DNA from: a virus
UHGV virus genome: UHGV-0317053
Direction: 5' to 3' (one strand)
DNA length: 37,827 nt
This document shows positions 2,314-33,292 of this stretch, one piece after another. The translations under genes were made by a program, and so were the position numbers. The notes below the pieces were generated by a model, which was not told the origin of the DNA, did no database searches, and saw nothing but the letters and a program-made list of their open reading frames with translations. Position 1 is the first letter of the stretch; every line of letters starts with the position of its first letter.

Positions 2314-2474
2314 TTTATCAGTTCGCTCCCATCCGTACCAGTCCGCAAAATTCCCTGAATATCAAGCCTTCCGTAGATTCACAGTTCGTAATGGTTCGCG
2401 TCAGATCGTTGACAGCCGCACACCATGACGGGTAAAAAGTGGATAAAATAATTTTACCCACCGGATTTTTACCC

Positions 2475-3632
2475 ATGCTCACCGTTAAGCAGATTGAAGC
2501 AGCAAAGCCGAAAGAAAAACCATACCGCCTACTCGATGGTAATGGCCTGTACCTTTATGTCCCTGTATCAGGGAAAAAGGTATGGCAGCTTCGCTACAAG
2601 ATTGACGGTAAGGAGAAAATCCTGACTGTCGGAAAATATCCGCTTATGACTTTGCAGGAGGCAAGGGATAAAGCATGGACTGCGAGGAAAGACATCTCGG
2701 TTGGCATCGATCCGGTAAAGGCGAAAAAGGCTTCGTCTAACAACAATTCCTTTAGTGCAATTTACAAGGAATGGTACGAACACAAGAAGCAAGTCTGGTC
2801 AGTAGGGTATGCGACTGAACTTGCAAAAATGTTTGATGACGACATTATACCCATCATCGGCGGCCTTGAAATTCAGGATATTGAGCCGATGCAACTGCTG
2901 GAAGTAATCCGCAGATTTGAAGATCGCGGTGCAATGGAGCGAGCCAACAAAGCACGAAGAAGATGCGGCGAGGTTTTTCGTTACGCTATTGTCACTGGTA
3001 GGGCTAAATATAACCCGGCACCTGACCTTGCTGACGCCATGAAGGGATACCGCAAGAAGAACTTCCCGTTTCTTCCTGCAGACCAGATCCCGGCATTCAA
3101 CAAAGCACTGGCAACATTTTCAGGAAGTATCGTATCGCTCATTGCGACCAAAGTTTTACGCTACACTGCCCTAAGAACGAAAGAGCTTCGTTCCATGCTA
3201 TGGAAGAACGTCGATTTTGAAAACAGGATTATCACCATCGACGCCAGTGTGATGAAAGGACGCAAAATTCATGTGGTCCCGATGTCAGACCAGGTGGTTG
3301 AACTTCTCACTACGCTAAGCTCAATCACCAAACCAGTATCAGAGTTTGTTTTTGCCGGGCGCAACGATAAGAAGAAGCCAATCTGCGAGAACGCGGTATT
3401 GCTTGTGATCAAACAAATCGGCTATGAGGGTCTGGAAAGCGGTCACGGATTCAGGCATGAATTCAGCACAATTATGAACGAGCACGAATGGCCTGCCGAC
3501 GCCATTGAAGTGCAACTGGCACATGCCAACGGCGGTTCTGTGCGTGGAATTTACAACCATGCTCAGTATCTCGATAAGCGCAGAGAAATGATGCAGTGGT
3601 GGGCAGACTGGCTTGATGAAAAGGCATCATAG
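2475..3632 (+). CDS. intS: P4-family tyrosine integrase
   Basis: N-terminus MLTVKQIEAAKPKEKPYRLLDGNGLYLYV typical of P4-type integrases; C-terminal HGFRH box and catalytic Tyr region; directly 3' of the tRNA. ATG at 2475 chosen (385 aa); ORF-track start 2439 is an upstream in-frame extension. Confidence 0.9.
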   Translation: MLTVKQIEAAKPKEKPYRLLDGNGLYLYVPVSGKKVWQLRYKIDGKEKILTVGKYPLMTLQEARDKAWTARKDISVGIDPVKAKKASSNNNSFSAIYKEWYEHKKQVWSVGYATELAKMFDDDIIPIIGGLEIQDIEPMQLLEVIRRFEDRGAMERANKARRRCGEVFRYAIVTGRAKYNPAPDLADAMKGYRKKNFPFLPADQIPAFNKALATFSGSIVSLIATKVLRYTALRTKELRSMLWKNVDFENRIITIDASVMKGRKIHVVPMSDQVVELLTTLSSITKPVSEFVFAGRNDKKKPICENAVLLVIKQIGYEGLESGHGFRHEFSTIMNEHEWPADAIEVQLAHANGGSVRGIYNHAQYLDKRREMMQWWADWLDEKAS

Positions 3633-5671: not shown

Positions 5672-6720
5672 GAAATCGTCCCCAGAACCGCCAGTTCATT
5701 TTTTGCAATGGAGATATTGTCTGCCGGTGCAAGCAACTGATGGCTGTATTCCCCGTTCGCACCGGAAATCGCTTCACTGATACGTGACACCTTCAGTTCT
5801 CCCTGCGGATAACCATCACGCAGCAGGAACGAACGCAACTCGGCGGTGATGGCAGCCCGTATTTCTGGTGTGTCCGGCGTCACGCGGATATGAAAATCCA
5901 CCGTATGTGCCACCGGCCTGAACACATACAAATCAGAGCCTGCCACCGGGGCCAGTGGCTCGATATGTTGTCTTGCCGCCGTTTCCGTTGATTCTTCCGG
6001 AATGGGATTAATCAGGTCACTGCTGGCAATCATCACACCGACAGTTCCCGTTCCCATCCAGTGACGGTATGTCCATGCGCGGGTAATGCCGGGCACTTCT
6101 TTAGCCCAGACGACATAGTCCCCGTCAGCCCCGCCCTGCGGCGTCCAGTAATACCGCTCAATGACGCGGGCGCGCCACGTTTCCAGCTCTTCAGTATCAA
6201 ATCCGCCTGTCAGGGTGTCAGCCACACCGGAAGACGGCAGACCATTCACCGGCGTGACCAGGATTAATGCCGTACCGTCGTCAGCGTTACCGACCGCGCC
6301 TGTAGTTGAGCAAGTGATCGGCACACGCAGGACACCACCAGTGCTGGTTGCATCGGCAGTTGCCGTGTACTGAACCAGGTCATCGCGCTGAATAACACTC
6401 CCGGCGGTCACCTTCAGGCCATCGCTGACACCTTCCCAGCGCATATACCCGCTGGCAGCCGTGGCCCCCTTGCGCGGACACCGTTTCATCGCAGCATGTC
6501 GCGCCAGCCAGGACTCATCGCACAGATCAGGCAGCATGTTCATTGCCAGATAATCGATGTAACCGTAAACCGTATGCAGCGCCGCCGCATACACCTTTGC
6601 CCGCACGTCTTCATCCATGCGCCGGAGCGTGTCGCTGACGTCCAGCCTGGCGAATAAATCGTTACGGAGCATACTGATATTTTCTGCCAGCGTCGGGCGC
6701 TGAAATTCACTGTCCGCCAT
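5662..6720 (-). CDS. baseplate J-like protein (Mu gp47-like)
   Basis: 352 aa; position and sequence character of baseplate J family; overlaps neighbours by a few codons. Confidence 0.7.
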
Positions 6721-7135
6721 GCGTTATCGCACTCCACAGATCATCAAAAGAAATCATTACCGGTCCGTCACGACGCCAGAGGGTGATACTGTTACCCAGC
6801 TCATTAATCCCGGTGCGGCGGATATCCAGATCAATACGGGACACCACGCCGTCATCAATCATCCATTGCAGGCATTCGCGGATATACCCCCTTACTGTCT
6901 GCACCAGCTGATTGGTCAGTTTGCTGCGCTGAAGCAGCCACAGTCGGGAGCCGTAACGGTCATTCTGTACCGCAGGCCAGGTATCCCCCCACCATCCCAT
7001 CGGGACGTCGGCGTTGTCATCAGGCTCCGCCCGCCGCCAGGTAAACAGGGAAATCACCACGGCACGGGTCAGCGGATCCAGCGGTGCGCTGGCGCAGGTG
7101 CGTTTACCGTTCACCGTCAGCCACAGTTCCATCAT
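6707..7135 (-). CDS. baseplate protein (Mu gp46-like)
   Basis: 142 aa; conserved position between V-like spike and J-like genes. Confidence 0.6.
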   Translation of the reverse strand: MMELWLTVNGKRTCASAPLDPLTRAVVISLFTWRRAEPDDNADVPMGWWGDTWPAVQNDRYGSRLWLLQRSKLTNQLVQTVRGYIRECLQWMIDDGVVSRIDLDIRRTGINELGNSITLWRRDGPVMISFDDLWSAITHGGQ

Positions 7136-7680
7136 GCCTCCATCGCTTTATCCGGTTTGTCGGTGTTACTGCCCTGACCGTTCTCTCTGTGACGATGCCC
7201 GTTATAGGCAAGCCGCATCGCTGACATGGTAGTGCCGCTGGAGTCGCACAGGTCTTTCACCTGTCCTGTCACTTCCAGGTCCATTTCAAAACGTGCTTTA
7301 GGTGAATTGCGAAACGTGATCGTTTTACCTGCACCGTCCACCACGATCCCCTCCCGGGTCAGCGTCACGGACTGCCCCTGATCGTCATAGACAGCCACCT
7401 CACCCGTCTGCAGCCCTTTCAGGCGGTAGCGCCGGTCCGACACCGTAACAACCACCGCATGAGAACGGTCGCCATCCGGAAACAACACCACCGCTTCCGC
7501 ACCGCTGTTTGCCCTTGCGGTAAAACCGTAGGGTTCAAGATGTTCAATCCCGGCTTTGGGTTCACCGGCAATCAGGGACACATCCACGGTCTGACATTTC
7601 GTGGCGGCACTGATGCTTTTCACCACGGCCCGCCCAATCAGGCCGAGGAGTTGTCGCTGCATGGCTTCAATCGTCCTCAT
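7132..7680 (-). CDS. baseplate assembly/spike protein V-like (Mu gp45-like)
   Basis: 182 aa; position in Mu-type baseplate block. Confidence 0.65.
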   Translation of the reverse strand: MRTIEAMQRQLLGLIGRAVVKSISAATKCQTVDVSLIAGEPKAGIEHLEPYGFTARANSGAEAVVLFPDGDRSHAVVVTVSDRRYRLKGLQTGEVAVYDDQGQSVTLTREGIVVDGAGKTITFRNSPKARFEMDLEVTGQVKDLCDSSGTTMSAMRLAYNGHRHRENGQGSNTDKPDKAMEA

Positions 7681-10144: not shown

Positions 10145-11980
10145 TTACCTGCCAAAGCGCGTATAGCCAACATCATGGCTGACATCAAAACCGCTGGATC
10201 GCGTTTCCATAACCCGCATACCCGGAGGCGAATTCACAAAAGAGACCTTGATCTCACCATCAACTTTTGGCGCAGAAGCTTTGTTAATCATGAAGGGATT
10301 CGGGCCTGTGGCACCGGAGGCGTTGTTTGACTGAGCCGGATCTACCGCCTGATAAGGTGTGTATCCCCGTGCCGGTATTCCCGTCCCATAAGCATCATAA
10401 GCACCCGCGCCCCACTGCGCAGAGTTAATGGCATCGACCGTGTCACCGGAACTGTCGGTAAACCACTCAATAATTGGCTTCAGTTTGTCCCACATATCCT
10501 GAAACCACTTAACAACCGGTCCCCAGTTATTGATTACCATCCCCAGCGGCGACCAGGCAAAAACCTTCTTCAGAAGCTCCCGGCCAGCCTCAAAATAAGG
10601 ACCAATGGTTTCCCAGAGCTTCTTGAAATAAGGTCCGACAACATCCCAGTTAGTGATAATTAATCCCGCAGCCAGGGCTATCGCCGTCGCAATCATGCCA
10701 ATCGGCGTCATCGACATGATCCTGCTGACAATACTGATGGCACCGCCAACGCCCATCAATCCCAGTTTCAGAATCGCAAGACCGGCAGCAAGCCCGACGA
10801 CGCCGCGAATAACCCGGGGATTTTCATCCGCAAACTTCGTGAATTTTTCCCCCAACTCCCCCAGCCATTGCGTGATATTTTTGGCGTCACCAGAAAATGC
10901 GCCGCCAATAGCCGCAAGGCCGTTAGTTGCGGTCCCCGTCATTGCCTCCCACAGGTTGGACAGCGTACCAAGCTGGGCCTGAACACGTTTATTCAGGCTG
11001 GCCTGTTTATTCATCTTCTGCTGGATCTGATCGTAGCCATCCTTTCCTTTATCGATCAGTGCATTGACCACCTGAAGGGTTTCGGCATCATCACCAAATA
11101 TTGCCTTAAGTACACCTGTTCGCTTAACGTCGGTCAGTTTTCGCAGCTTTGCCAGTTGCCTGAACATGTTATCAAGACCGCCAAAACTTCCTTTGCCGTC
11201 AGTAAAATCGAGCTGTACCCCGAGTTTCTGGCGGGCCATGACTTTATTGACGTCCCTGATTTTCTTAACGCTTAATCCGGACTGGATAACTTTTCGCAGG
11301 GCATTACCTGCCGACTCCCCGTTCATCCCCATCTGATCCATCATGACACTGATGGGGGCAAGACTCTGTGCAGCCTGAAGACCGTCCTTGTTCACCATCT
11401 TCAGAACAGAGCTGGTTTTAGTGAAGAATGACAGCATGTTGGTGTCGTCAACGCCCAGATAAAACGCCTTCTGAATTGTGTCGAACAGCCCCATCATGTC
11501 TTCTGAGACCGTTCCGGTAGCATCCTGCATCTTTGCGGCAAACTCGGCAGCCGCTTCCGGTGTTTTTTTCAGTTGTACCGCAAGATAAGCTGTCGCTTTA
11601 CCCACACCGCCAAGAATGTTTTCTGCCGGGATCCCCTGACGCACCAGCATCTGCATCATGTTCTGAAAATCAGCTGTTGTACCGGGTAGCTGGTTACCCA
11701 GGCCAATAGCCAGTTTATTGATGTCCTGAAAGCGCTTTCCAACCTCGCCGTTCGCATCCATCATGGCGACTTTCAGCCCGGTGGCGGCGTTTTCCTGATC
11801 GGCATAAGATTTCAGGGAAAGCGTCAGACCCGCTGCCAGTCCGCCACCAAGCGCCAGCCCACCCTGTGACGCTTCTTCCGCCTGGCGTTTAAATCCCCGG
11901 ATTTTCTTTTGCATTTTCGACAGCGCGGGAGAAAGCCTGTCGACACCGGTGATCAACGCCTTAAGCTCAAATTCAGCCAT
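10145..11980 (-). CDS. tail tape measure protein
   Basis: 611 aa, Ala/Gly-rich with coiled-coil N-terminus and hydrophobic segment; follows chaperone frameshift pair. Confidence 0.85.
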   Translation of the reverse strand: MAEFELKALITGVDRLSPALSKMQKKIRGFKRQAEEASQGGLALGGGLAAGLTLSLKSYADQENAATGLKVAMMDANGEVGKRFQDINKLAIGLGNQLPGTTADFQNMMQMLVRQGIPAENILGGVGKATAYLAVQLKKTPEAAAEFAAKMQDATGTVSEDMMGLFDTIQKAFYLGVDDTNMLSFFTKTSSVLKMVNKDGLQAAQSLAPISVMMDQMGMNGESAGNALRKVIQSGLSVKKIRDVNKVMARQKLGVQLDFTDGKGSFGGLDNMFRQLAKLRKLTDVKRTGVLKAIFGDDAETLQVVNALIDKGKDGYDQIQQKMNKQASLNKRVQAQLGTLSNLWEAMTGTATNGLAAIGGAFSGDAKNITQWLGELGEKFTKFADENPRVIRGVVGLAAGLAILKLGLMGVGGAISIVSRIMSMTPIGMIATAIALAAGLIITNWDVVGPYFKKLWETIGPYFEAGRELLKKVFAWSPLGMVINNWGPVVKWFQDMWDKLKPIIEWFTDSSGDTVDAINSAQWGAGAYDAYGTGIPARGYTPYQAVDPAQSNNASGATGPNPFMINKASAPKVDGEIKVSFVNSPPGMRVMETRSSGFDVSHDVGYTRFGR

Positions 11981-12155
11981 GTGTGCGTTTCTCCTGCTCT
12001 ATCCTGTTTGCCTGACTGACCAGCAAGGGAATTTCACTGATCGGCATATTCAGCAATTCGAAGGGATTAATGCGCCAGTAGCTGGCGCAGTCAAAGAAGC
12101 GATCAGTGAGGTATTCAGCCGTCAGGCCTGGAGGAAAAAACCAGCCACAAGCCAC
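11973..12155 (-). CDS. -1 frameshift extension of the tail assembly chaperone (GT-like product)
   Basis: ORF in the -1 frame overlaps the chaperone 3' end and the tape-measure start; slippery T TTT TTC present. Confidence 0.55.
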   Translation of the reverse strand: MACGWFFPPGLTAEYLTDRFFDCASYWRINPFELLNMPISEIPLLVSQANRIEQEKRTHG

Positions 12156-12391
12156 GCCGCTGCATTCAGGTCTGCCGGAGACATCTGGTCGACAGAGTTT
12201 TGCGGCACTTTCGCCAGCCGCACAATGTATTTCGATACCACATGCGCCAGAAGTCTGACGGACTCATCCTGATTCATCTGGTAGGGATACCCCAGCTCGC
12301 GGACATCTTTCCCGGTGGGCTCATCAAACTCCAGTACGGAGAGTGTCTCGCCATGAGCGGTAATCGGTTTCTTTAACTCAAGCTCTTTCAT
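12122..12391 (-). CDS. tail assembly chaperone (lambda G-like)
   Basis: 89-aa ORF directly upstream of tape measure; ends over slippery heptamer. Confidence 0.7.
   Translation of the reverse strand: MKELELKKPITAHGETLSVLEFDEPTGKDVRELGYPYQMNQDESVRLLAHVVSKYIVRLAKVPQNSVDQMSPADLNAAAWLVAGFFLQA
12134..12140 (-). other. slippery heptamer T-TTT-TTC for programmed -1 frameshift
   Basis: minus-strand reads GGT TTT TTC CTC in zero frame; -1 frame stays open to 11973. Confidence 0.55.
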
Positions 12392-12747
12392 TACTGGTAA
12401 TCCCCTTCTTCACCGTGGAACTCAAGATCAACCGTCCCTTCTTCGGCATTATGGTTCGCTTCGCCGTGCAGCCAGGCAGACGACAGTACATAGACCTGAC
12501 CGTTCGCCAGCTCGGCAGTGATGGTCATCTCATCAGACGAGGTGATTTTGCCCACCGGAAAATTCTTCGGCACCTTGAAGGTCCCTTTAACATAAGACGC
12601 ACGGTGAGTTTCCTTGCGGTCCACTGAACCGTCCAGGCCGATGATGTCATCATTGACCGTCCTGTTCATGGGCACCTCAATGCCGCCGGTCAGCGATAGC
12701 TGCTGACCGTCAATTTTGAAATAACAGGTTCCCCCGATACGGGCCAT
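12391..12747 (-). CDS. tail tube protein
   Basis: 118 aa, immediately downstream of sheath gene. Confidence 0.7.
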   Translation of the reverse strand: MARIGGTCYFKIDGQQLSLTGGIEVPMNRTVNDDIIGLDGSVDRKETHRASYVKGTFKVPKNFPVGKITSSDEMTITAELANGQVYVLSSAWLHGEANHNAEEGTVDLEFHGEEGDYQ

Positions 12748-14240
12748 TATGCAGACTCCTCTGAATACTGAAGACGGAACTGGTTAACCACAGCAAAAAC
12801 ACGCAACTGGTTAACATAGTCAGGCGGGAACAGCGTGTTCAGGCGGTTCGGATCGCTGGCATCACGCTCCACAACCAGGTACTGCTTAAACAGTTCGTAG
12901 TTTTCCACGATCCCCGCACGCTCAAGCTGACGGTAGGTTGCCAGCAGTTCCCCTTTGATTACCGCCGGGGTGACAATCGCCTGACCGGGACCAAAGCGGG
13001 TACCGTCGCTGGCAAGCTTGTGACGCCCGTACTTACTGGTAATGACGGATTTCAGTTTGCGCAGCACATACGCGCTGGTATGCAGCGTCTCGCTGTCGAG
13101 GTAGCTGTTATCCGCAACACCGTAAGCGTTTTTCCTGTACGTGGTGACATCACGCTGAATGCGCAGCACCCCGCTTTCGACATACGCCGTTGCCACGCCA
13201 TGAGACAGCAGGGTCTGTTGTTCGGTCATCGTGAACCGTTTCCCCTTCGGCGCAGGCAGCATACCCACCAGCTCACCGGTCTGCGTGGGACGTGCCGGAT
13301 CGTTGCGAATAAACACCGCTGCGCGGGCGGTACGGCTTGCCGCCAGCTCGTCGGCAGGCGTCTGGGTCTCTTTTTCGTATCCCGCCAGGGTAATGTGCTG
13401 CTGGTTAAACTGGTCACCTGCGGTCACCAGTTCTGACAGCGTGCCGATCTTTGCCGTATACACATGACCATACAGCTGACGCGCATAGCTCCAGCGACCG
13501 CTGGTATCGTTCATCTCGGTCACCAGCGTGTTAACGGAGGCCGTGTCGTTGAACGGCAGGCCGATATAATCAAACGGCTCATCCGCCATTGCAGCCACCG
13601 CGCCGGTGAGAACAGGAGCGCCCGTTCCGGCGGTACCCGTCGCCACGGCAATCTGTACGCCCGCTGGCAGCACTTCGCCCCCACCAAAGCCGTAGTAATT
13701 GAGGCTGACAGGAATTTCATTCCCGCAAAGCCCCTTATGACGCGCGGTCAGTGTGACCACGCCTGCCGAAGATGAGGCAGTAAACGGCAGGGTCGGAACG
13801 GCATTGATGGCATCTTTGATACTGCTGGCAATCGTCGCGACGTTATCGCCGTTGGTCACCGGTGCCTGCACGCGGGTACGTCCCACATAAACATTCACCG
13901 TGCCGGTTTCGGTTGCCGCGCCGGTCACCGTCAGCGTAACTGTTGCCGCCGCGCCCGTGGATTCAGGAACGGCAATCACATACAGTTCACCAAACGGGTC
14001 GGTCTGGCGATAAGCCTCGACCATACGCGCCAGCTGACTTCCCGCACCACAAATCTGGCGTGCATAGTCTGCCGATGGCATCAGCACCAGACTGTTGGCA
14101 ACAATCTCTGCACCGTTATTGGCATGACCAATCAGCAGCGATGCTCCGCTGTCCTGTGCAGTATTCGCCGCCGAGTTATCCATTTCCGCATAAAAAATCG
14201 GAACCAGCGTATTCGACGGAATGGTGTTAAAGCTCGTCAT
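12747..14240 (-). CDS. contractile tail sheath protein
   Basis: 497 aa; N-terminus MTSFNTIPSNTLVPIFYAE typical of sheath proteins. Confidence 0.85.
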   Translation of the reverse strand: MTSFNTIPSNTLVPIFYAEMDNSAANTAQDSGASLLIGHANNGAEIVANSLVLMPSADYARQICGAGSQLARMVEAYRQTDPFGELYVIAVPESTGAAATVTLTVTGAATETGTVNVYVGRTRVQAPVTNGDNVATIASSIKDAINAVPTLPFTASSSAGVVTLTARHKGLCGNEIPVSLNYYGFGGGEVLPAGVQIAVATGTAGTGAPVLTGAVAAMADEPFDYIGLPFNDTASVNTLVTEMNDTSGRWSYARQLYGHVYTAKIGTLSELVTAGDQFNQQHITLAGYEKETQTPADELAASRTARAAVFIRNDPARPTQTGELVGMLPAPKGKRFTMTEQQTLLSHGVATAYVESGVLRIQRDVTTYRKNAYGVADNSYLDSETLHTSAYVLRKLKSVITSKYGRHKLASDGTRFGPGQAIVTPAVIKGELLATYRQLERAGIVENYELFKQYLVVERDASDPNRLNTLFPPDYVNQLRVFAVVNQFRLQYSEESA

Positions 14241-24388: not shown

Positions 24389-25441
24389 TTATTTCCCCAC
24401 CAGTTCACTTACCTCTTTCACCGTCTGATTAAACCGCTCTGACTCAAGTTCAACACCTAACGCCCGACGTCCCAGCGCCATTGCTGCTTTTATTGTGGAA
24501 CCGGATCCCATAAAAAAATCAGCAACCAGATCACCTGGTCGACTACTGGCATTGATTATTTGCCGGAGCATATCCGCAGGCTTCTCACACGGATGTTTAC
24601 CCGGGTAGAACTGAACGGGTTTATGCGTCCAGACGTCGGTATAAGGCACGGAAACTGATACGGAGAAATAGCGCCGGAGAGTTTTAAACTCATCCAGCAA
24701 TTCAGAATATTTGCGATTCAGTGAATCATAAGATGCCACCAGCTGGTGGTGTGGTTGTTCCAGTTGTTGTTCCTGAAACTTCTCTGCCGCTATACGGGAA
24801 AACAGTGCCTGTAACTTCCGATAGTCAGCCTCATTCGGCAACTGCCACTGACTGGCACCAAACCAGTGGGAAACCATATTTTTCTTACCTGTGGCTTCGG
24901 CAATTTGTTTTGCCGTTATACCCAGTTCGGCACGAGCATCCCTGAAATACGATATCAGCGGTGCCATTATGTGCTGTTTGAGTTCCCTTTCTTTTGCCGC
25001 ATAGCCGTCACTTTTGCCGCGATATGGCCCCTGGTAATGTTCAGCAAACAGAACGCGCTCTGTGGCAGGAAAATATGCGCGCAGACTTTCTTTATTACAC
25101 CCATTCCAACGTCCGGACGGCTTCGCCCAGATGATATGGTTAAGCACGTTGAAACGTTCACGCATCATGATCTCAATATCAGATGCCAGGCGATGCCCAC
25201 AGAACAGGTAAAGGCTTCCGGCAGGTTTCAACACCCGCCAGAACTGGGCCAGACAGTGGTCCAGCCACTTAAGGTAATCTTCGTCCCCTTTCCACTGATT
25301 GTCCCAACCGTTGGGTTTCACCTTGAAGTAAGGCGGATCGGTAACAATCAGGTCAATGGAATCATCAGGCAGGGACTGAATAAAATGCAGGCAATCAGCG
25401 TTGATTAAATCAACACTGTTTATTTTTACAGTATTTTTCAT
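24389..25441 (-). CDS. DNA methyltransferase, beta-class amino-MTase (N6-adenine or N4-cytosine; YhdJ-like)
   Basis: 350 aa; motif IV DPPY near N-terminus (LIVTDPPY) and motif I FxGxG near C-terminus (DFFMGSGST). Confidence 0.85.
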   Translation of the reverse strand: MKNTVKINSVDLINADCLHFIQSLPDDSIDLIVTDPPYFKVKPNGWDNQWKGDEDYLKWLDHCLAQFWRVLKPAGSLYLFCGHRLASDIEIMMRERFNVLNHIIWAKPSGRWNGCNKESLRAYFPATERVLFAEHYQGPYRGKSDGYAAKERELKQHIMAPLISYFRDARAELGITAKQIAEATGKKNMVSHWFGASQWQLPNEADYRKLQALFSRIAAEKFQEQQLEQPHHQLVASYDSLNRKYSELLDEFKTLRRYFSVSVSVPYTDVWTHKPVQFYPGKHPCEKPADMLRQIINASSRPGDLVADFFMGSGSTIKAAMALGRRALGVELESERFNQTVKEVSELVGK

Positions 25442-26047: not shown

Positions 26048-26800
26048 TTATCTTGTCACCTTTCTCAATTGTGCTTCAGCGTAAGATTCCTCCTGCCAGC
26101 ACTTTGTAACCAGTTTATCAATGACATCTGCATATCCTTTGTACCACTGATAATCCGTCAGGTCTGGTACCAGTTTCTGGACATGATGCCGCGCCAGTGT
26201 GGTTGGTAAACGACTAAACCGTTTTCCATTGCAACGCCCACAAATCTTATAAACAGGCGTACCATGAAGCCGGGTTCTTTTTTCATCCAGGACAATACCT
26301 TTACCCTTACACCCTCTGCACGCTGTGCTGACTTCTCCCTTACCATGACAATGCTGACATAGTTCCTTCACCCACTCTTCCTTGATAACAGACTCCCCGC
26401 TTCTGGAGTGTTTCACCACTTCGCGCAATACATTATGAAATCCAGTACCAGCACAATGCTCACAGCGAGCCTTACTTTCCGCAGACCTGGAATAATCAGC
26501 AAAGGCAAAATTCACAAGGTAAGGGATGATCTGTAACCGAGTTTCTTCACTCAATTTGTTCAATGTCGGGTTATCCAGTGCCATCGCGTAATTGAGCAGA
26601 CCTTCAATCGCAAATTGAGGATCCTGAACACCAACTTTTGCCAGGAATAAGGCAAACCCAAGCGGTGCTTTCGACTGCACCATCCCCTGCGCAGCCATCA
26701 CATCCGTAATCGTTAAACCACCTGAGCCTGTCGCCGGTGCGTCATCGCTCAATTTTGGAGATTTCGGGGAGTAATATTTTGGTAAGGCTTCAAGGTTCAT
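26048..26800 (-). CDS. putative late antiterminator (Q-like) with four CxxCxGxG zinc-finger motifs
   Basis: position immediately upstream of pR'/tR' and lysis genes; motifs CEHCAGTG, CQHCHGKG, CRGCKGKG, CGRCNGKR; ATG 26800 with GGAGA SD. Confidence 0.5.
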   Translation of the reverse strand: MNLEALPKYYSPKSPKLSDDAPATGSGGLTITDVMAAQGMVQSKAPLGFALFLAKVGVQDPQFAIEGLLNYAMALDNPTLNKLSEETRLQIIPYLVNFAFADYSRSAESKARCEHCAGTGFHNVLREVVKHSRSGESVIKEEWVKELCQHCHGKGEVSTACRGCKGKGIVLDEKRTRLHGTPVYKICGRCNGKRFSRLPTTLARHHVQKLVPDLTDYQWYKGYADVIDKLVTKCWQEESYAEAQLRKVTR

Positions 26801-26813
26801 GCTCGTTCTCCAC

Positions 26814-27809
26814 TTACGCCAATACGCCAATTGCCAGCGCACGATCGATAAAACGAAATATCAGCTCCAGCTGAGAGCCATACTTCTCTTCAAATGCCAC
26901 GGTATCCGCATGCAGCTCGTCGTGATGCTTTCTGCACAAAGGCAACACAAAGAGGTCATGCGCTTTTGTACCCATTCCACCCTGACCGTGGCCTATCAGG
27001 TGGTGGGGATCATCAGCAGGCTTTCCACAACATGCACACGGCTGTGTCTTAACCCAGCGCGTGTACTTTTCATTAACCCAGCGGCGGCGTTTTGGGCGTA
27101 ACATAAAAGACTCCGGCGACTCCGGATCCACTTTCAGCGCCAGCACCTTTTTCGCCTTATCCTGGATGATGCTGGTGGCAGGAACCGAAGGCACAAGGTC
27201 ACTTTCCCGGGTGACAGACGGCACAACAGGCTTCGGTAATCTCAGTGCCTTACGGGCTGCGCTTTCCGGTAAGGCATCCGCCAGGTCATTACGAATCAGC
27301 CACCAGCACAGTTCCGGCATTGTCACAACGTGACTGTCATCAAAACCGAGATCCCGACGCACAACAGACAACACCCAGCGGGCACAGTTATCCGTTGCCA
27401 TTGATTCCAGCCGTTCCGTGAACTGATCGCGCAGCTGGTTATCGCAGTGCCAGCACAGACGGATTGCACCCGGAGCGTGTCGCATTGTGGTCATGTTCTC
27501 GCTGTGCCAGTCGGAATGAGGCCACTGGCAACCTTTTTCACGAAGTAACCAGCGTTCAAGACATTCCACTCCACCAGCACGACGAATCACTGCCTCATTG
27601 CGGAACACGGCCCGAACGGCAGGATCATCCGCCAGCGGTTGTGATGCCGCCGGAACGGCACCACTGGCGAAAGATGAATAACGTTCCGGCTCAGGCTCCA
27701 GCAGGACACGCCCCTGCATAAACAGGGGCATCAGTTCTGAACCTGGCCTGAACAATACGATCCCCATACGCGGGGCAATTTCAGGGGTCAGTAGTGCTCT
27801 CACGGTCAC
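26814..27809 (-). CDS. prophage protein, DUF968-like with C-terminal Cys/His (HNH-like) motif
   Basis: 331 aa; C-terminus CACCGKP...HHLIGHGQGG...CRKHHDELH; nin-region position. Confidence 0.5.
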   Translation of the reverse strand: MTVRALLTPEIAPRMGIVLFRPGSELMPLFMQGRVLLEPEPERYSSFASGAVPAASQPLADDPAVRAVFRNEAVIRRAGGVECLERWLLREKGCQWPHSDWHSENMTTMRHAPGAIRLCWHCDNQLRDQFTERLESMATDNCARWVLSVVRRDLGFDDSHVVTMPELCWWLIRNDLADALPESAARKALRLPKPVVPSVTRESDLVPSVPATSIIQDKAKKVLALKVDPESPESFMLRPKRRRWVNEKYTRWVKTQPCACCGKPADDPHHLIGHGQGGMGTKAHDLFVLPLCRKHHDELHADTVAFEEKYGSQLELIFRFIDRALAIGVLA

Positions 27810-27810
27810 C

Positions 27811-28620
27811 TCAATGAACGGTATCGAGCAGCTTTAACAGCTCAGGGAATCGGGATTCGAAGAAATGCGGCTGCGTCTCGCGCGGATTTGCGGGACTGGT
27901 GATGTTCTTGCCGAACATGCAGCCTTTCGCCGTCAGCGACCAGAATTTTTTGATGTTGTTAATCGCGGTACGGCTGTATCGTTCGCGTTGTTCAACGATC
28001 CCCAGCTTCGCCATCTGGTGATATGCCTGATTAGCTGTCAGGCGGATACCATACTGCTTCAGCAGTGCACTCAATGATAGCGTGGGGCGGCTTGAGCCAT
28101 CAGGCGCGTCAGCAGGAGCATCAATGGCATAGCGCGGTGCCAGATTCGGTAAGCCAACAGCCCCCTGGAGTTTCTGACAGGCACCAAGCACTGAAGAGTT
28201 AGACAGGTTTAACTCCCGGCGCATAAAGTCCAGCAGGATCACGCCAGCCTGCATCTTGTCAGCAGCCTGTCCGGATAATTTTTCCGGTGCGCTGGTTACC
28301 ATATCGAAAGTACGGATCACCTTCAGATGGAATGACGGGCTGATCCACATTGCATAGGCATACACCAGTTCCTTGCAGACATACGTTCCCCGTTCATTTC
28401 CCCCATGAATCACACTCACCGGGTCAACACCCAAATTCTGGGTGTTGGTCAATTCATGAACAAGCTCAACAGTTTGTTGGCTGGAAAGAAACTTTCCCGG
28501 CTCCTTGGTTCTGGCATTTGCACCAGATGCTACTGCTGCGCGATGCAGATCGTTCAGGCTGTAACGCCCATAAGCATCACGACGAACTTCAATACCATCA
28601 ATGACCATCAGATTATTCAT
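27811..28620 (-). CDS. KilA-N domain protein (antirepressor-like)
   Basis: N-terminal pattern ...YSLNDLHRAA...GTYVCKELVYAYAMWISP.F typical of KilA-N. Confidence 0.7.
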   Translation of the reverse strand: MNNLMVIDGIEVRRDAYGRYSLNDLHRAAVASGANARTKEPGKFLSSQQTVELVHELTNTQNLGVDPVSVIHGGNERGTYVCKELVYAYAMWISPSFHLKVIRTFDMVTSAPEKLSGQAADKMQAGVILLDFMRRELNLSNSSVLGACQKLQGAVGLPNLAPRYAIDAPADAPDGSSRPTLSLSALLKQYGIRLTANQAYHQMAKLGIVEQRERYSRTAINNIKKFWSLTAKGCMFGKNITSPANPRETQPHFFESRFPELLKLLDTVH

Positions 28621-28639: not shown

Positions 28640-29029
28640 TCAGGCGGCTGCACCCGCCGTTTTCTCGTACTTACTGATAGTGATCTCGACCTTCCCTTCC
28701 GGGATAACGGGTCCCCACTCCACCAGCATTCTTTTCACCTGACTGTCGTCTTCCCACACACCCGCGTGGGTCAGGGCGTCAAACAGCGCCTTGTTATAGT
28801 TGTCCAGATCGCGGATCCGGTTATCCGGAGGAAACAACACGATCTCCACTGAAGCAGGTGCCGACGTTGGTTTCGGCAGACGACGTAACTGCTCAACTAT
28901 TGCTGCGCACGCCGCGCTCTGGAATTTTCGCCCCGCCTCGCTTATCAGGCTCTTACCAGCAAACGCTCCTTTGTTGGGGTGTCGCCAGTACGTGTTCACG
29001 CTGGGCGGAAAAGGCAGGATCAGCTTCAT
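28640..29029 (-). CDS. rusA: Holliday junction resolvase RusA
   Basis: 129 aa; matches RusA pattern (PPSVNTYWRH..., DLDNYNKALFDALTHAGVWEDDSQV). Confidence 0.85.
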   Translation of the reverse strand: MKLILPFPPSVNTYWRHPNKGAFAGKSLISEAGRKFQSAACAAIVEQLRRLPKPTSAPASVEIVLFPPDNRIRDLDNYNKALFDALTHAGVWEDDSQVKRMLVEWGPVIPEGKVEITISKYEKTAGAAA

Positions 29030-29352
29030 ACTTTCAGGTCCCTCTCATGTAACCAGTGGGTTGCACGCAGCCTTGCGTTTTCCTCACCGGCAAGCAGTGC
29101 GCGGATAATCCCGACCGCCTCGCTGTCGTCGTCCTTCACCGCGGTATGAAGCGTTATCCCCCGGGCCATGCCACGCTTTATCGTGATGACGCCTTTTTTC
29201 TCCAGTGCGCGAAGATGCTCCACCGCTGCATTCACCGAACGGTATCCCAGCATGGTTGCCACCTCCTGATTGGTTGGCGGGAAGCCACGTTCTTTCTGAT
29301 AAGAAATCAGCATATCCAGCACCTGCTGCTGGCATTGAGTTAACGTCGTCAT
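29026..29352 (-). CDS. LexA N-terminal DNA-binding domain-only protein
   Basis: 108 aa; QQQVLDMLISYQKERGFPPTNQEVATMLGYRSVNAAVEHLRALEKKGVI closely resembles LexA winged-helix domain; no S24 peptidase domain. Confidence 0.65.
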   Translation of the reverse strand: MTTLTQCQQQVLDMLISYQKERGFPPTNQEVATMLGYRSVNAAVEHLRALEKKGVITIKRGMARGITLHTAVKDDDSEAVGIIRALLAGEENARLRATHWLHERDLKV

Positions 29353-30002
29353 GCCGCCATCTCCCTGACCAGTTTTTCCGCCTGCTGGCGAACCTGCGCC
29401 AGAAACGCCTCACCACATGCCTCAAGTTCATCGCGCCCGATGTAGCTGATTGCCGGTCCCTTCCATGTCTTGTCAAAAACAGCAATAGCACCAGCGAAAA
29501 AAGCTCCTGTCGGTACCTGCTTCTCGTCTTTCGGGATAAACCAGACAGGCAGTTCAAAACCAATACGCCCGCGAATAAAAGCAATATGATCTGCATCTTC
29601 CGGCCACCACACTTCGCTGGTGGCAGCTTTGATCAGGAAAACATAGCGCCCGCCCTTATCACGCATGGCACTGGCATGTTTCATGATGTAACGCATGCCG
29701 GTGATGTATTGCCCCTCATGCTGACTGGCGCGGCTGTATGGGGGATTACCAAAGGCAGCACCTTTAAGCTCCGCAAGACGTTCTGACCAGTCATGCGCCA
29801 GCGCGTTGTCTTCCGCCGTGTAATACGCGGCACATTTGGCGTTATCACCGTCAGTGAACAGATCCAGAACAAACGGGCCAAACAGGGTGTTAATTCCCCA
29901 GAAAATGTTGTCCGGCGTGCGCCACTGATCGCCCACTTCCTTCAGTTCATGGGCTGGTTTGTTCCGCAGTTCCACCAGCGTCTGGCAATATTTATTACTC
30001 AT
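29349..30002 (-). CDS. phage Dam-family N6-adenine DNA methyltransferase
   Basis: NPPY catalytic motif (GNPPYSRAS); ATG 30002 overlaps upstream stop; ORF-track start 30035 is extension. Confidence 0.8.
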   Translation of the reverse strand: MSNKYCQTLVELRNKPAHELKEVGDQWRTPDNIFWGINTLFGPFVLDLFTDGDNAKCAAYYTAEDNALAHDWSERLAELKGAAFGNPPYSRASQHEGQYITGMRYIMKHASAMRDKGGRYVFLIKAATSEVWWPEDADHIAFIRGRIGFELPVWFIPKDEKQVPTGAFFAGAIAVFDKTWKGPAISYIGRDELEACGEAFLAQVRQQAEKLVREMAA

Positions 30003-30496
30003 TAAGCCCCCACGTAATTCCCTGACAGATACCACTCTTCACCCGATGCAGCGCGCTTGCTGCTTTTCCGTAAGCACCGCTCACGACGCGCCAGAAAATT
30101 GTTTCGTTCTGGCTGGGAGTGGCTTTCACGGAATGCCGCCATCCACACGGTTGCAGCACGACGGTATAAGCCCCTGGACTCCAGTTCTTCCGCCTGGCGG
30201 GTCAGGCACAAAATCACACGGGGATCGTTAGTGCCGACATAGAAATTGCGCACAGGTCTGGTTTCACGAACTGGTTGTGGTTCCGGTTCCTGCGCTCTCT
30301 CAGTCAGGCGCGGGAAATGTCTGCGTGTATCTCCTTCACAACGGTGAGCCACACGCCCACTCTGACGTAACTTGCTTGCTGACTGCAGAACGCGCTGCCG
30401 TGAGTAACCGGCAAAAGCATCCGCAATATCTCCGGAAGTACAGCCCGGATGGGCTTCAATGAATTTCTGAACGTCATTCAAAAGACTCATGCTCAC
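30002..30496 (-). CDS. yfdN: YfdN-like protein with PerC/ANR-like C-terminal motif
   Basis: 164 aa (same length as K-12 YfdN as recalled); motif GLYRRAATVWMAAF resembles PerC/Pch regulators. Confidence 0.45.
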   Translation of the reverse strand: MSMSLLNDVQKFIEAHPGCTSGDIADAFAGYSRQRVLQSASKLRQSGRVAHRCEGDTRRHFPRLTERAQEPEPQPVRETRPVRNFYVGTNDPRVILCLTRQAEELESRGLYRRAATVWMAAFRESHSQPERNNFLARRERCLRKSSKRAASGEEWYLSGNYVGA

Positions 30497-31434
30497 CCCC
30501 TGAATCCTGCCGGGATCTGGCTGTAGTCCACGTTGTCGTAACTGGCTTTGAAGTACGGGTCTTCGCGTTTTTCGGTGTACGTGCTGACGGACGGCGATAA
30601 GCGCAGGGAAAGCTCATCCCATTTTTCCCGCAGCTTCGACGGGCTGAGCACGTTACGGCACCAGAACGGATCGCGACTGACGCGGCTGTACATCTCGCAG
30701 ATTTGTTTATGAGTACGACCATCCTGCACACACATCAGGCGAATTTCGTTTGCCCAGGCTGTCCAGTTCGGTTCTTTGGGACGAACCACCTCGCCGTCAC
30801 ATTCGGCGGCCTGCTCGTACAGGGCGATGATTTTTTTCCAGAGCCACTGTGCGCAGGTCAAATCATCCTGCGTTCCCCACTGGCGCTTTTTAGGGCTGAA
30901 TACAACCGCATCAGGATGGCGAGTTAAAAACTCCTGTTCAGCCGTCTGCGTGTCCGGTTGCGAAGCGTCCGGACGAGAAGTTTTTTTATCTGACGGATCA
31001 TGTTTTGATTTTACTGACGGATCCCCGCCAGATTCTGACGGGTGAAAAACCGCTTTTTTGCCAGATTTCGACGCATCAAATTTTGACGGGTCAGATTTTG
31101 ATGCGTCAGATTTTGACGGGTCAGAATCTGACAGTTGAGAAAATGCCGCTGCCTGAAGCTTCGCAACGTTAAGCTGATAAACATTCGACGCATTGCGGTT
31201 ACCCTGGCGACGCGCCTTACGTGTTAACCAGCCTTCTGCTTCCAGCCGTGCGATAGCCGTTCTGACGGTACTCATCCCCGCGCCAATCTGGCGGGCAATG
31301 GTTTCAATTGATGGCCAGCACACACCTTCGTCATTACTGAAATCAGCCAGGCGGGCCATAATTGCCACGCTGGATAATTTCATGCCTGACGCAGCGCAAC
31401 CATCCCATACATAGCCGGTTAATTTAGTGCTCAT
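30493..31434 (-). CDS. replication initiator (lambda O-like, HTH) containing origin iterons
   Basis: N-terminal winged-helix region; internal low-complexity DPSKSDASKS repeats encoded by DNA iterons. Confidence 0.7.
   Translation of the reverse strand: MSTKLTGYVWDGCAASGMKLSSVAIMARLADFSNDEGVCWPSIETIARQIGAGMSTVRTAIARLEAEGWLTRKARRQGNRNASNVYQLNVAKLQAAAFSQLSDSDPSKSDASKSDPSKFDASKSGKKAVFHPSESGGDPSVKSKHDPSDKKTSRPDASQPDTQTAEQEFLTRHPDAVVFSPKKRQWGTQDDLTCAQWLWKKIIALYEQAAECDGEVVRPKEPNWTAWANEIRLMCVQDGRTHKQICEMYSRVSRDPFWCRNVLSPSKLREKWDELSLRLSPSVSTYTEKREDPYFKASYDNVDYSQIPAGFRG
30987..31135. repeat. iteron array (putative replication origin) inside the replication gene
   Basis: at least 6 direct copies of ~(a/t)ttt(t/c)tgacgg(g/a)tca plus adjacent A/T-rich stretch gaaaaaccgcttttttg. 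Confidence 0.65.
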
Positions 31435-31443
31435 GACCGACCT

Positions 31444-31782
31444 CTATTTCCCTGAATTTACGACGAAACTGTTCGAGCGGGCTGAAGCACTCATGCTCAT
31501 AGCCTTCACGGAGGTAGATAACCCGTTGTGTTTCCGGCTCCCAACGAATGACTCTGACGGGCACTCCGTAGTGATCTTTGAACCAGCGGTTAACTTGTCG
31601 CAAAGGACTGTCTCCTTCTGCCGGTTGAAATCACCCACAGCCCACTCGGCAAAGCTGTGGGTTACAATTTCCCTGTCACCTGGTACATTTACTGCATAGC
31701 AATACTCCACCTTCGCTTTTCCACCCAGTACAGGAAGCGCAATCAGTTGCGAGCGACGGTAGTGTGTTGTTAAACTGTTCAT
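31444..31782 (-). CDS. hypothetical protein (112 aa)
   Basis: ATG overlaps CII-like stop (ATGA); encloses a 9-bp perfect inverted repeat; coding status uncertain. Confidence 0.35.
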
Positions 31783-32375
31783 GCGTTAGTTTCTCCACAG
31801 TCACGACACGCCACGGCGCCCGGAGCTGCACACTCGCGGGCGTCATTACTTTCTGAAATGCAAAAAATTTTGTAGACCAGTGCTGCATGCTCCTGCAGCT
31901 TCGAAATTGAGAGATACAGCTCGTCGTTAATTGCTGTCTTCTCATGCGGTTCCACCACACCGTCTTCGATTGCCGAACGAATCTGTCTGGAATAACTGCC
32001 AATCTGTTCAATGACTTCCAGCAGGCGCTGGTTAATATCGGCGTTGTCCACATCCTCGACGTCAGGAAGAGACACAAAGACGCCATTTGCAGACTGCGCC
32101 ACAGCGTCAGCAATGAAGTGAGTTCCACCAGCACGTTGCAAAATCATTGCCCATCCCAGCGGGAAAATCTGATCGCCATCGGCACGAAGGCGGTTAAATA
32201 ATGCGTTTTCTGTTACATCCAGCCAGTCAGCTGCTTCAGCGTAACCACCCGGCAACGCTGCGATAGTTTTTCTGACAGCTTTCACGTACCACTCAGGCTG
32301 TTTTTCTACTTTCCAGTGATGCTTACCCACGGTTAGCCTCATCGTTCTGTGGTTTCTGTTAATCGATTTATCCAT
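31779..32375 (-). CDS. CII-like regulatory protein (phage 186 CII / YdaT-type)
   Basis: ATG overlaps cro stop (ATGGATAA); sequence pattern resembles remembered 186 CII family. Confidence 0.5.
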
Positions 32376-32568
32376 TAGATTTTTCATAAAGCTCAGGTTT
32401 AAATGGCAACCGTCCGCAAGTTCTATATGCAGCTTCTGCTGCACGTCCTTTTGGAATTAACTGGCCCGGACGGTTTCGCCACTGATAAACGGCTTCAGTT
32501 GTTATGCCGAAAAAAGCAGCAACTTTCTCAATACTGCCGAAGTAGCTTTCGATATCGTCAGTTGTCAT
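32368..32568 (-). CDS. cro: Cro-like repressor
   Basis: 66 aa HTH protein divergent from cI; GGAGGG SD. Confidence 0.75.
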   Translation of the reverse strand: MTTDDIESYFGSIEKVAAFFGITTEAVYQWRNRPGQLIPKGRAAEAAYRTCGRLPFKPELYEKSNG

Positions 32569-32577
32569 ACGCCCTCC

Positions 32578-32634
32578 AAACTAAGTTTTATTAGATGCTA
32601 ATTACAAATCTATCTTTGGTCAATAAAAACTAAG
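32578..32634. promoter_or_regulatory. cI-cro operator region with repeated AAACTAAG motifs
   Basis: AAACTAAG at 32578..32585 and 32627..32634 flanking the pR hexamers; short palindromes ATTAG-N3-CTAAT and CTAAG-N4-CTTAG. Confidence 0.4.
32595..32623 (-). promoter_or_regulatory. candidate pR promoter
   Basis: minus-strand -35 TTGACC, 17-bp spacer, -10 TAGCAT, upstream of cro. Confidence 0.4.
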
Positions 32635-32665: not shown

Positions 32666-33292
32666 ATGGAAACGGTTGGTCAGCGTATAAAAGCTCTGAG
32701 AAGAGTTACCGGAACGTCCCAGAAAGAATTGGGTAAATTTTGTGGAGTAAGCGACGTTGCTGTGGGGTACTGGGAGAAAGACATCAATACCCCTGGTGGG
32801 GAGGCACTTTCGAAATTAGCGAAGTTCTTCAATACGTCAATAGACTACATTCTTTATGGTGCTGAGTTTGAAGGCAAACTCGTCACAAACATGCGCAGAG
32901 TTCCTGTAATATCGTGGGTTCAGGCTGGGCAGTTTACTGAGTGCAGGGCAGCAGAAGTGTTTAGTGAAGTGGACAAGTGGGTAGATACATCATTAAAGAT
33001 TGGTGATAACTCATTTGCATTAGAGGTTAAAGGTGACTCCATGACTAACCCTAATGGCCTCCCAACAATACCAGAAGGCGCAACAGTGATTGTAGATCCA
33101 GATGCAGAACCTCGTCATGGAAAAATAGTCATCGCTCGACTTGATGGAACAAACGAAGCTACAGTAAAAAAATTAGTCATCGATGGCCCTCAAAAGTTTT
33201 TAGTGCCATTAAATCCTCGGTATCCCAACATCCCTATCAATGGTAATTGCCTTATCATTGGTGTAGTCAAAGGAGTTCAATACGAACTCTAA
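32666..33292 (+). CDS. cI: CI-like repressor (HTH-XRE N-domain plus S24 LexA-like peptidase C-domain)
   Basis: 208 aa; HTH (SQKELGKFCGVSDVAVGYWE), Ala-Gly cleavage site (QAGQ), Ser/Lys dyad region (GDSM ... KK). Confidence 0.85.
   Translation: METVGQRIKALRRVTGTSQKELGKFCGVSDVAVGYWEKDINTPGGEALSKLAKFFNTSIDYILYGAEFEGKLVTNMRRVPVISWVQAGQFTECRAAEVFSEVDKWVDTSLKIGDNSFALEVKGDSMTNPNGLPTIPEGATVIVDPDAEPRHGKIVIARLDGTNEATVKKLVIDGPQKFLVPLNPRYPNIPINGNCLIIGVVKGVQYEL

Follow-up and report, generated by a model that had tools for sequence, protein, structure and literature searches.

The locus described here raises the question of what a phage gains from a protein that has the DNA-binding domain of LexA and lacks its autocleavage domain. 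The gene lies in UHGV virus genome UHGV-0317053, and the whole stretch of 37,827 nucleotides that was analysed is referred to as the window. From the sequence of the gene, the initial annotation had proposed that its product could occupy SOS boxes as a non-cleavable repressor or decoy, and so modulate the host SOS response or prophage induction.

The gene is already annotated and very common. It was found in 2233 of 5426 complete E. coli genomes (41%), with up to four copies per genome, and relatives are encoded at at least 589 IMG/VR loci. Carriers include Stx2a, Stx2c and Stx2k converting phages, the Shigella serotype-converting phages SfII, SfIV and SfV, and phage cdtI. PGAP annotates the product as 'LexA family transcriptional regulator', PHROGs (phrog_362) and RefSeq label it 'transcriptional repressor', and several phage records say 'SOS-response repressor and protease LexA' or 'RecA-mediated autopeptidases'. 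As the 108-aa protein has no protease domain, the protease and autopeptidase labels are wrong. In the literature searched, no functional study of the lambdoid LexA-like protein was found.

The gene and the parts of its product are located as follows.

29026..29352, minus strand: LexA-like gene, 108 aa (open reading frame, PF01726, phrog_362, pN/pS).
29149..29352, minus strand: LexA-type winged helix-turn-helix, residues 1-68 (AlphaFold2 model, 3jso overlay, gap-free LexA alignment).
29197..29238, minus strand: recognition helix, residues 39-52, SVNAAVEHLRALEK (E. coli LexA: SPNAAEEHLKALAR) (alignments).
29029..29130, minus strand: two-helix tail, residues 75-108, in place of the S24 domain (model, conservation, pN/pS).

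The reading frame extends from an ATG at 29350-29352 to a stop codon at 29026-29028, and thus encodes a 108-aa product at exactly the coordinates given initially. In a Pfam search, residues 1-65 matched the full length of PF01726 (LexA_DNA_bind; model positions 1-65 of 65) with E=2.1e-19 and 69.5 bits at a cut-off of 23.7, and the phrog_362 profile was aligned over positions 1-106 of 106 with residues 1-108 (E=1.5e-58). A phmmer search against the PDB matched 1lea, the E. coli LexA DNA-binding domain, gap-free over residues 2-70 (E=8e-16), and residues 1-68 are about 50% identical to E. coli LexA. The AlphaFold2 model (pLDDT 85) comprises a winged helix-turn-helix (helices 6-22, 28-35 and 40-52; strands 56-58 and 66-68), a low-confidence linker (residues 69-74) and two extra helices. 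Its best Foldseek match was the DNA-bound LexA structure 3jso, with an rmsd of 0.7 Å over 68 residues at 50% identity. The close likeness to the LexA N-terminal winged helix noted in the initial annotation is confirmed by the PF01726 match and the 3jso superposition. The absence of the S24 peptidase domain was likewise described correctly: the Pfam search gave no Peptidase_S24 match for this protein of only 108 aa, and the same search detected PF00717 (Peptidase_S24) in the CI repressor of the prophage (32666-33292). The protein is a member of the LexA winged-helix family with a distinctive tail.

The base-contacting residues of LexA are S39, N41, A42, E44 and E45 (PMC3091678). Their retention, on which binding to SOS boxes as initially suggested would depend, holds in the alignment for S39, N41, A42 and E45 and fails at position 44, where Glu is replaced by Val. 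Across about 190 family loci, position 44 is never Glu, with V, A, F or T in its place, and position 45 is Glu in most lineages; sizeable sublineages have A, L, T or I there, and some of these still have an SOS box upstream of the LexA-like gene. Residue R28 in alpha-2 is not conserved across the family and is N in the window protein. The residues that are invariant in relatives down to 38% identity include S39, N41, L50, K53 and the wing residues R64-G65-I66, and both the helix 3 pattern SxNAAxEHLxAL and the RGI of the wing are common to the LexA-like protein and LexA. Because E44 is replaced throughout, E45 is variable and R28 is lost, the DNA specificity may differ from that of LexA.

The conserved 34-residue C-terminal tail had been overlooked in the initial annotation. 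It is modelled as two helices (residues 75-88 and 93-103; pLDDT about 90 in this stretch), and the full-length relatives found by an exhaustive HMMER search (38-53% identity) have the tail as well as the winged helix. We infer that the tail mediates dimerisation in place of the S24 domain. Several longer proteins (P0129, P0132, P0149, P0157, P0160 and P0161; 140-350 aa) match the LexA-like query in two separate stretches and, from these matches, may be tandem LexA DNA-binding domains, that is, single-chain dimers.

The HMMER alignment extends to LexA residue 86, placing A88-G89 opposite the A84-G85 cleavage bond and the segment LLAGE (residues 86-90) opposite the LexA cleavage region VAAGE. 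LLAGE was considered as a remnant of the cleavage site and rejected, since relatives do not conserve the Ala-Gly pair (LLANE, LLVGE or LLAGK; TR, DD or ER in distant members) and AlphaFold2 predicts a helix here, not an extended strand.

The gene is under strong purifying selection. Across 45 distinct alleles (82 loci), pN/pS is 0.09 overall, and by region it is 0.02 for the winged helix and 0.25 for the tail.

The surroundings of the gene, from the host flank to the prophage repressor, comprise the following features.

182-937: host mlaA.
1231-2163: yfdC-like transporter gene (host).
2239-2313: tRNA-Arg(CCT) (host).
2439-3632: phage integrase.
24389..25441, minus strand: N6/N4 DNA methylase of the late region, with an SOS box at its 5' end (PF01555).
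26048..26842, minus strand: Q antiterminator, at the end of the early-right operon (PF03589).
26814..27809, minus strand: DUF968/HNH-like protein, a conserved module partner (PF06147, E=3.5e-81; synteny).
27811..28620, minus strand: KilA-N domain protein, a possible antirepressor (PF04383).
28640..29029, minus strand: RusA Holliday-junction resolvase, downstream of the LexA-like gene (PF05866).
29349..30035, minus strand: Dam-type N6-adenine methyltransferase, upstream of the LexA-like gene (PF05869, E=1e-45).
30002-30496, minus strand: PerC-like protein of 164 aa with a PerC transcriptional-activator domain, two genes upstream of the LexA-like gene.
30493-31434, minus strand: replication protein.
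31779-32444, minus strand: CII-like protein.
32595..32623, minus strand: pR-like promoter TTGACC-17-TAGCAT (consensus scan only).
32666..33292, plus strand: CI-type prophage repressor with an S24 domain, of the RecA-cleavable type (HTH_3 and Peptidase_S24).

The order of mlaA, the yfdC-like gene, tRNA-Arg(CCT) and the integrase identifies the window as an argW prophage, and the phages nearest to it are vB_EcoS-569R4, mEp460, SfII/SfIV/SfV, cdtI and Stx2c phages. PerC/Pch-type prophage regulators affect virulence gene expression in pathogenic E. coli. The ATG of the LexA-like gene overlaps the TGA of the Dam gene (ATGA), and its own TGA overlaps the ATG of RusA in the same manner (ATGA); these overlaps of start and stop codons with the Dam and RusA genes suggest translational coupling. 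A consensus scan of the minus strand between 28,640 and 32,594 found neither a promoter nor a terminator, and transcription of the LexA-like gene probably starts at the pR-like promoter. With no promoter or terminator between this site and the RusA/KilA-N junction, the gene is most likely a delayed-early gene, made only after inactivation of the prophage repressor or after infection. In six different phage backgrounds, RusA, DUF968 and Q come after the LexA-like gene, in some cases interrupted by a small ORF or an antirepressor, and the upstream neighbours differ among the six (Dam, a C5 methylase, or replication genes).

SOS boxes were scored with a matrix derived from 21 E. coli LexA operators, on which genuine sites reach 12.8-27.2 bits; the strongest matches are literal TACTGT-N8-ACAGTA, the published consensus. 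The window has one strong box, in the late region, which is a candidate target on the phage itself.

25414..25433, no strand assigned: strong SOS (LexA) box CACTGTTTATTTTTACAGTA, inside the gene of the late-region DNA methylase, over codons 3-10 (matrix score 22.7 bits).

CTGT-N8-ACAG with at most one mismatch is not enriched in the window (16 found, 13.4 expected), and the perfect motif occurs once per 38 kb, near the chance expectation of about 0.6. What makes the 25414-25433 box credible nevertheless is that it scores 22.7 bits and persists where the methylase has diverged: it is kept in the diverged allele AACTGGATATTTTTACAGTA (locus L013, 13497-13516) and in a distant phage (L090, 10739-10758). 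It is a candidate target of the LexA-like protein. In the window operon upstream of the LexA-like gene, no box of at least 10 bits was found.

In the carrier loci (1.49 Mb), 68 boxes of at least 16 bits were found against 0-2 in shuffled sequences, many of the 68 being copies in near-identical loci; phage lambda has no SOS box of at least 16 bits. The boxes recur at the methylase start, in the linker-coding part of the mEp460-type cI gene (31 loci) and at the ATG of a KilA-N gene downstream of RusA. The box within the mEp460-type CI coding sequence is a near-consensus TACTGT-N8-ACAGTA between the HTH and S24 parts and was seen in 31 IMG/VR loci, with the box at 1546-1565 in L006 (phage mEp460) and at 836-855 in L001; its arms are kept and spacer variants occur. 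In L020 (6014-6033; also in L051 and L060), an SOS box lies over the ATG of a 303-aa KilA-N protein encoded directly after RusA, which suggests, from the position of the box, that the KilA-N protein of these three loci is a LexA-controlled antirepressor. The KilA-N gene of the window (27811-28620) has no corresponding SOS box. Neither in the 82 window-like loci nor in about 75 scored P0131-like loci was an SOS box found within 1.5 kb upstream of the LexA-like gene, and most P0131-like loci have none even within 4 kb upstream.

One group of relatives has a different arrangement. This clade A comprises the P0139/P0231-like relatives (36 loci, mutual identity 45-97%), and strong SOS boxes are present in 32 of the 36 loci; in about 29, a box occupies a conserved site ahead of the gene, and the spacer sequences differ. 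In the three loci inspected (L088, L090 and L117), a terminator hairpin is followed by -35/-10 elements that are overlapped by the box. In L117, DinI (Pfam E=1e-23) precedes a small ORF with a GTG start, which in turn is followed by the LexA-like gene. The small ORF belongs to phrog_1813 ('unknown function') and is located at 7713-7961 in L088 and at 7724-7951 in L090; a homologue is found directly after dinI in Salmonella phage SPN3UB (41386-41625). Downstream of the LexA-like gene are phrog_1212 and RusA in L088 and RusA directly in L090, in both cases followed by DUF968 and Q; in L117, RusA is missing and phrog_1212 and DUF968 follow the gene.

Gifsy phages possess a LexA-controlled dinI-gftA-irsA operon, in which the antirepressor gene gftA also starts with GUG (PMC3121763). 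The small phrog_1813 ORF stands where gftA does in that operon, right behind dinI, and by this analogy is probably an unannotated antirepressor family. Judged from sequence, the clade-A LexA-like gene belongs to a LexA-repressed antirepressor operon, beside the SOS modulator DinI, and by analogy this layout echoes both the autoregulated host lexA gene and the Gifsy operon. A tblastn search of the window with the small clade-A ORF found nothing, and Dam is directly upstream of the LexA-like gene there.

Further genes were observed in the same three loci. L117 has a second SOS box (2836-2855) before a 109-aa ORF (2877-3206, starting MGFPSPAKDY), upstream of the DinI/antirepressor/LexA-like operon; the ORF has no Pfam match. 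In L088, a bacterial RNase A-like toxin and a CdiI-like immunity protein are encoded on the minus strand at 5863-7232, just upstream of the SOS-box promoter, and in L090 a Cas1-domain gene and an AcrVA2-like gene are on the opposite strand in the late region (11794-13390).

Isolated LexA N-terminal domains bind operators weakly and repress when a partner lets them dimerise, the principle behind LexA-based two-hybrid systems, and the cleaved N-terminal fragment of LexA is degraded by ClpXP because of its residual repressor activity. On this background we tentatively favour, among the readings weighed here, that the LexA-like protein is an uncleavable repressor that binds SOS boxes. The reading is drawn from the near-complete LexA reading head, which is kept under very strong purifying selection; from the conserved tail, which could supply the dimerisation that LexA needs; from the one clade with the gene inside SOS-controlled operons; from the abundance of strong SOS boxes in the carrier phages; and from the general knowledge that a dimerised LexA N-terminal domain represses and that ClpXP removes the cleaved fragment. 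The role put forward initially, a non-cleavable occupant of SOS boxes that modulates the SOS response or induction, is plausible and gained indirect support from the retained base-contacting residues, the clade-A operons and the SOS boxes of the carrier phages. Nothing specific was found in favour of the decoy version of that role.

In the proposed mechanism, the protein would act as a phage paralogue of LexA, made up of the winged helix, a short flexible linker and a two-helix tail for dimerisation. It would be expressed from pR only after the prophage repressor has been inactivated or after infection. Upon SOS induction, RecA* destroys the host LexA; the LexA-like protein, with no cleavage site, active site or RecA-docking domain, would accumulate and re-occupy CTGT-N8-ACAG operators. 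Its targets on the phage would be the 25414-25433 box here and, in relatives, the promoter from which the antirepressor operon, the LexA-like gene included, is transcribed; host SOS promoters are possible further targets. The expression of LexA-controlled genes would thereby be shut off or made into a pulse.

Our confidence in an uncleavable SOS-box repressor remains guarded because dimerisation and operator specificity are inferred, as is the physiological effect, and because positions 44 and 45 vary. The SOS boxes of lambdoid phages are explicable by host LexA alone, and Gifsy phages, which have no LexA-like gene, possess them as well (PMC3121763). It also counts against this reading that most carriers, including the window, have no SOS box near the gene.

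The main rival, possible but with appreciably less in its favour, is that the protein is a phage-specific repressor or activator with an operator that has drifted away from the SOS box. An experimentally shown precedent is gp6 of the Bacillus tectivirus GIL01, a truncated LexA homologue that binds its own non-SOS palindrome GaCACAnnTGTGaC and activates the late promoter P3; it is the only characterised phage LexA truncation, and an activator (PMC6182141). A diverged operator would fit the absence of Glu from position 44, the variable position 45 and the loss of R28, as well as the scarcity of SOS boxes near the gene and the PHROGs and RefSeq labels, which say only 'transcriptional repressor'. 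However, a palindrome survey of the carrier loci brought up no alternative conserved operator: the only repeats were due to coding-sequence homology, with no candidate for a gp6-like site, a palindrome that overlaps the -35 element of a late promoter. Lambdoid late promoters use Q antitermination and need no activator, and helix 3 resembles gammaproteobacterial LexA (SxNAAxEHLxAL) far more than would be expected if the specificity had changed. A relationship to gp6 was not detected by tblastn at E<=1e-3 either, with no Bacillus or tectivirus phage among the 45 individually listed of 63 matching records.

It is improbable that the protein is a DNA-binding accessory of a RusA-DUF968(HNH) recombination/nuclease module, comparable to lambda NinH beside NinG/Rap. 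The order LexA-like, RusA, DUF968, Q in the six phage backgrounds (38-50% identity), where the upstream genes vary, and the overlap of the LexA-like stop codon with the RusA start would agree with such a role. Yet L117 has no RusA, with phrog_1212 and DUF968 after the gene, RusA is widespread without the LexA-like gene, and the invariant sequence-reading residues S39 and N41 point to sequence-specific binding; synteny in lambdoid nin regions, moreover, often reflects inheritance of a module and not function.

A decoy or dominant-negative role against host LexA or RecA*, by way of mixed dimers or as a competing cleavage substrate, is very improbable. The position of A88-G89 opposite the LexA cleavage bond A84-G85 in the HMMER alignment would suit a competing substrate, but the pair is unconserved in relatives, LLAGE is predicted to be helical and not extended, and the protein lacks the C-terminal domain through which LexA dimerises and RecA* docks. 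That the gene is a dead, non-functional leftover of a captured lexA, as a product truncated to the N-terminal part of LexA might suggest, is effectively excluded by the selection data (pN/pS 0.09), and is further opposed by the full-length conservation of relatives down to 38% identity, new tail included, by the presence of the gene in 2233 of 5426 E. coli genomes and by the apparent translational coupling of its start and stop codons.

If the LexA-like protein is an uncleavable LexA, many pathogenic strains have a second SOS repressor that RecA cannot remove, which could bear on when prophages are induced, on toxin release, on SOS mutagenesis during antibiotic exposure and on how co-resident prophages compete. 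A broader proposition, which we consider doubtful at present, is that a common enterobacterial prophage family carries a RecA-insensitive substitute for LexA that is switched on by derepression or, in the Gifsy-like relatives, by LexA cleavage, and that closes SOS operators again. If true, antirepressor operons under LexA control would have a built-in negative-feedback pulse, and an induced prophage could end the host SOS response; competing prophages under LexA control, colicins and SOS toxins would be possible targets, and the induction of Stx phages might be affected.

Compared with cellular LexA (1lea, 3jso), the protein has the same winged helix-turn-helix, with about 50% identity over residues 1-68 in a gap-free alignment. 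Unlike LexA, it lacks the S24 peptidase/dimerisation domain, Ser119/Lys156 and a conserved Ala-Gly bond, has a 34-residue two-helix tail instead, and differs by the replacements of E44 by V and of R28 by N. The cellular lexA gene is an autoregulated chromosomal locus, whereas the LexA-like gene of the window is part of a phage early operon with no upstream SOS box. GIL01 gp6 is likewise a phage-encoded LexA DNA-binding domain without a cleavage domain, and the life cycle of GIL01 is tied to host LexA. It has been described as essentially the winged-helix domain alone, whereas the LexA-like protein has the helical tail, and from the sequence comparison gp6 probably arose separately, by truncation of a Gram-positive LexA.

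The clade-A loci resemble the Gifsy dinI-gftA-irsA and phage 186 Tum operons (PMC3121763) in having a terminator, an SOS-box promoter and a small ORF with a GTG start. Their Gifsy-type layout is located between the replication genes and Q and, in L088 and L090, is accompanied by a prophage repressor without an S24 domain, as in Gifsy phages. They differ in that the antirepressor is followed by the LexA-like gene, a place taken by irsA in Gifsy. The window gene, in contrast, is outside such an operon, has no upstream SOS box and is found in a prophage with a repressor of the cleavable type. Finally, DinI and Listeria AriS (PMC9043618) offer a functional comparison as phage-encoded dampers of the SOS response, the role proposed here, and DinI is co-operonic with the LexA-like gene in relatives. 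No sequence relationship is implied by this comparison: DinI acts on RecA filaments, whereas the LexA-like protein would act at the operators.
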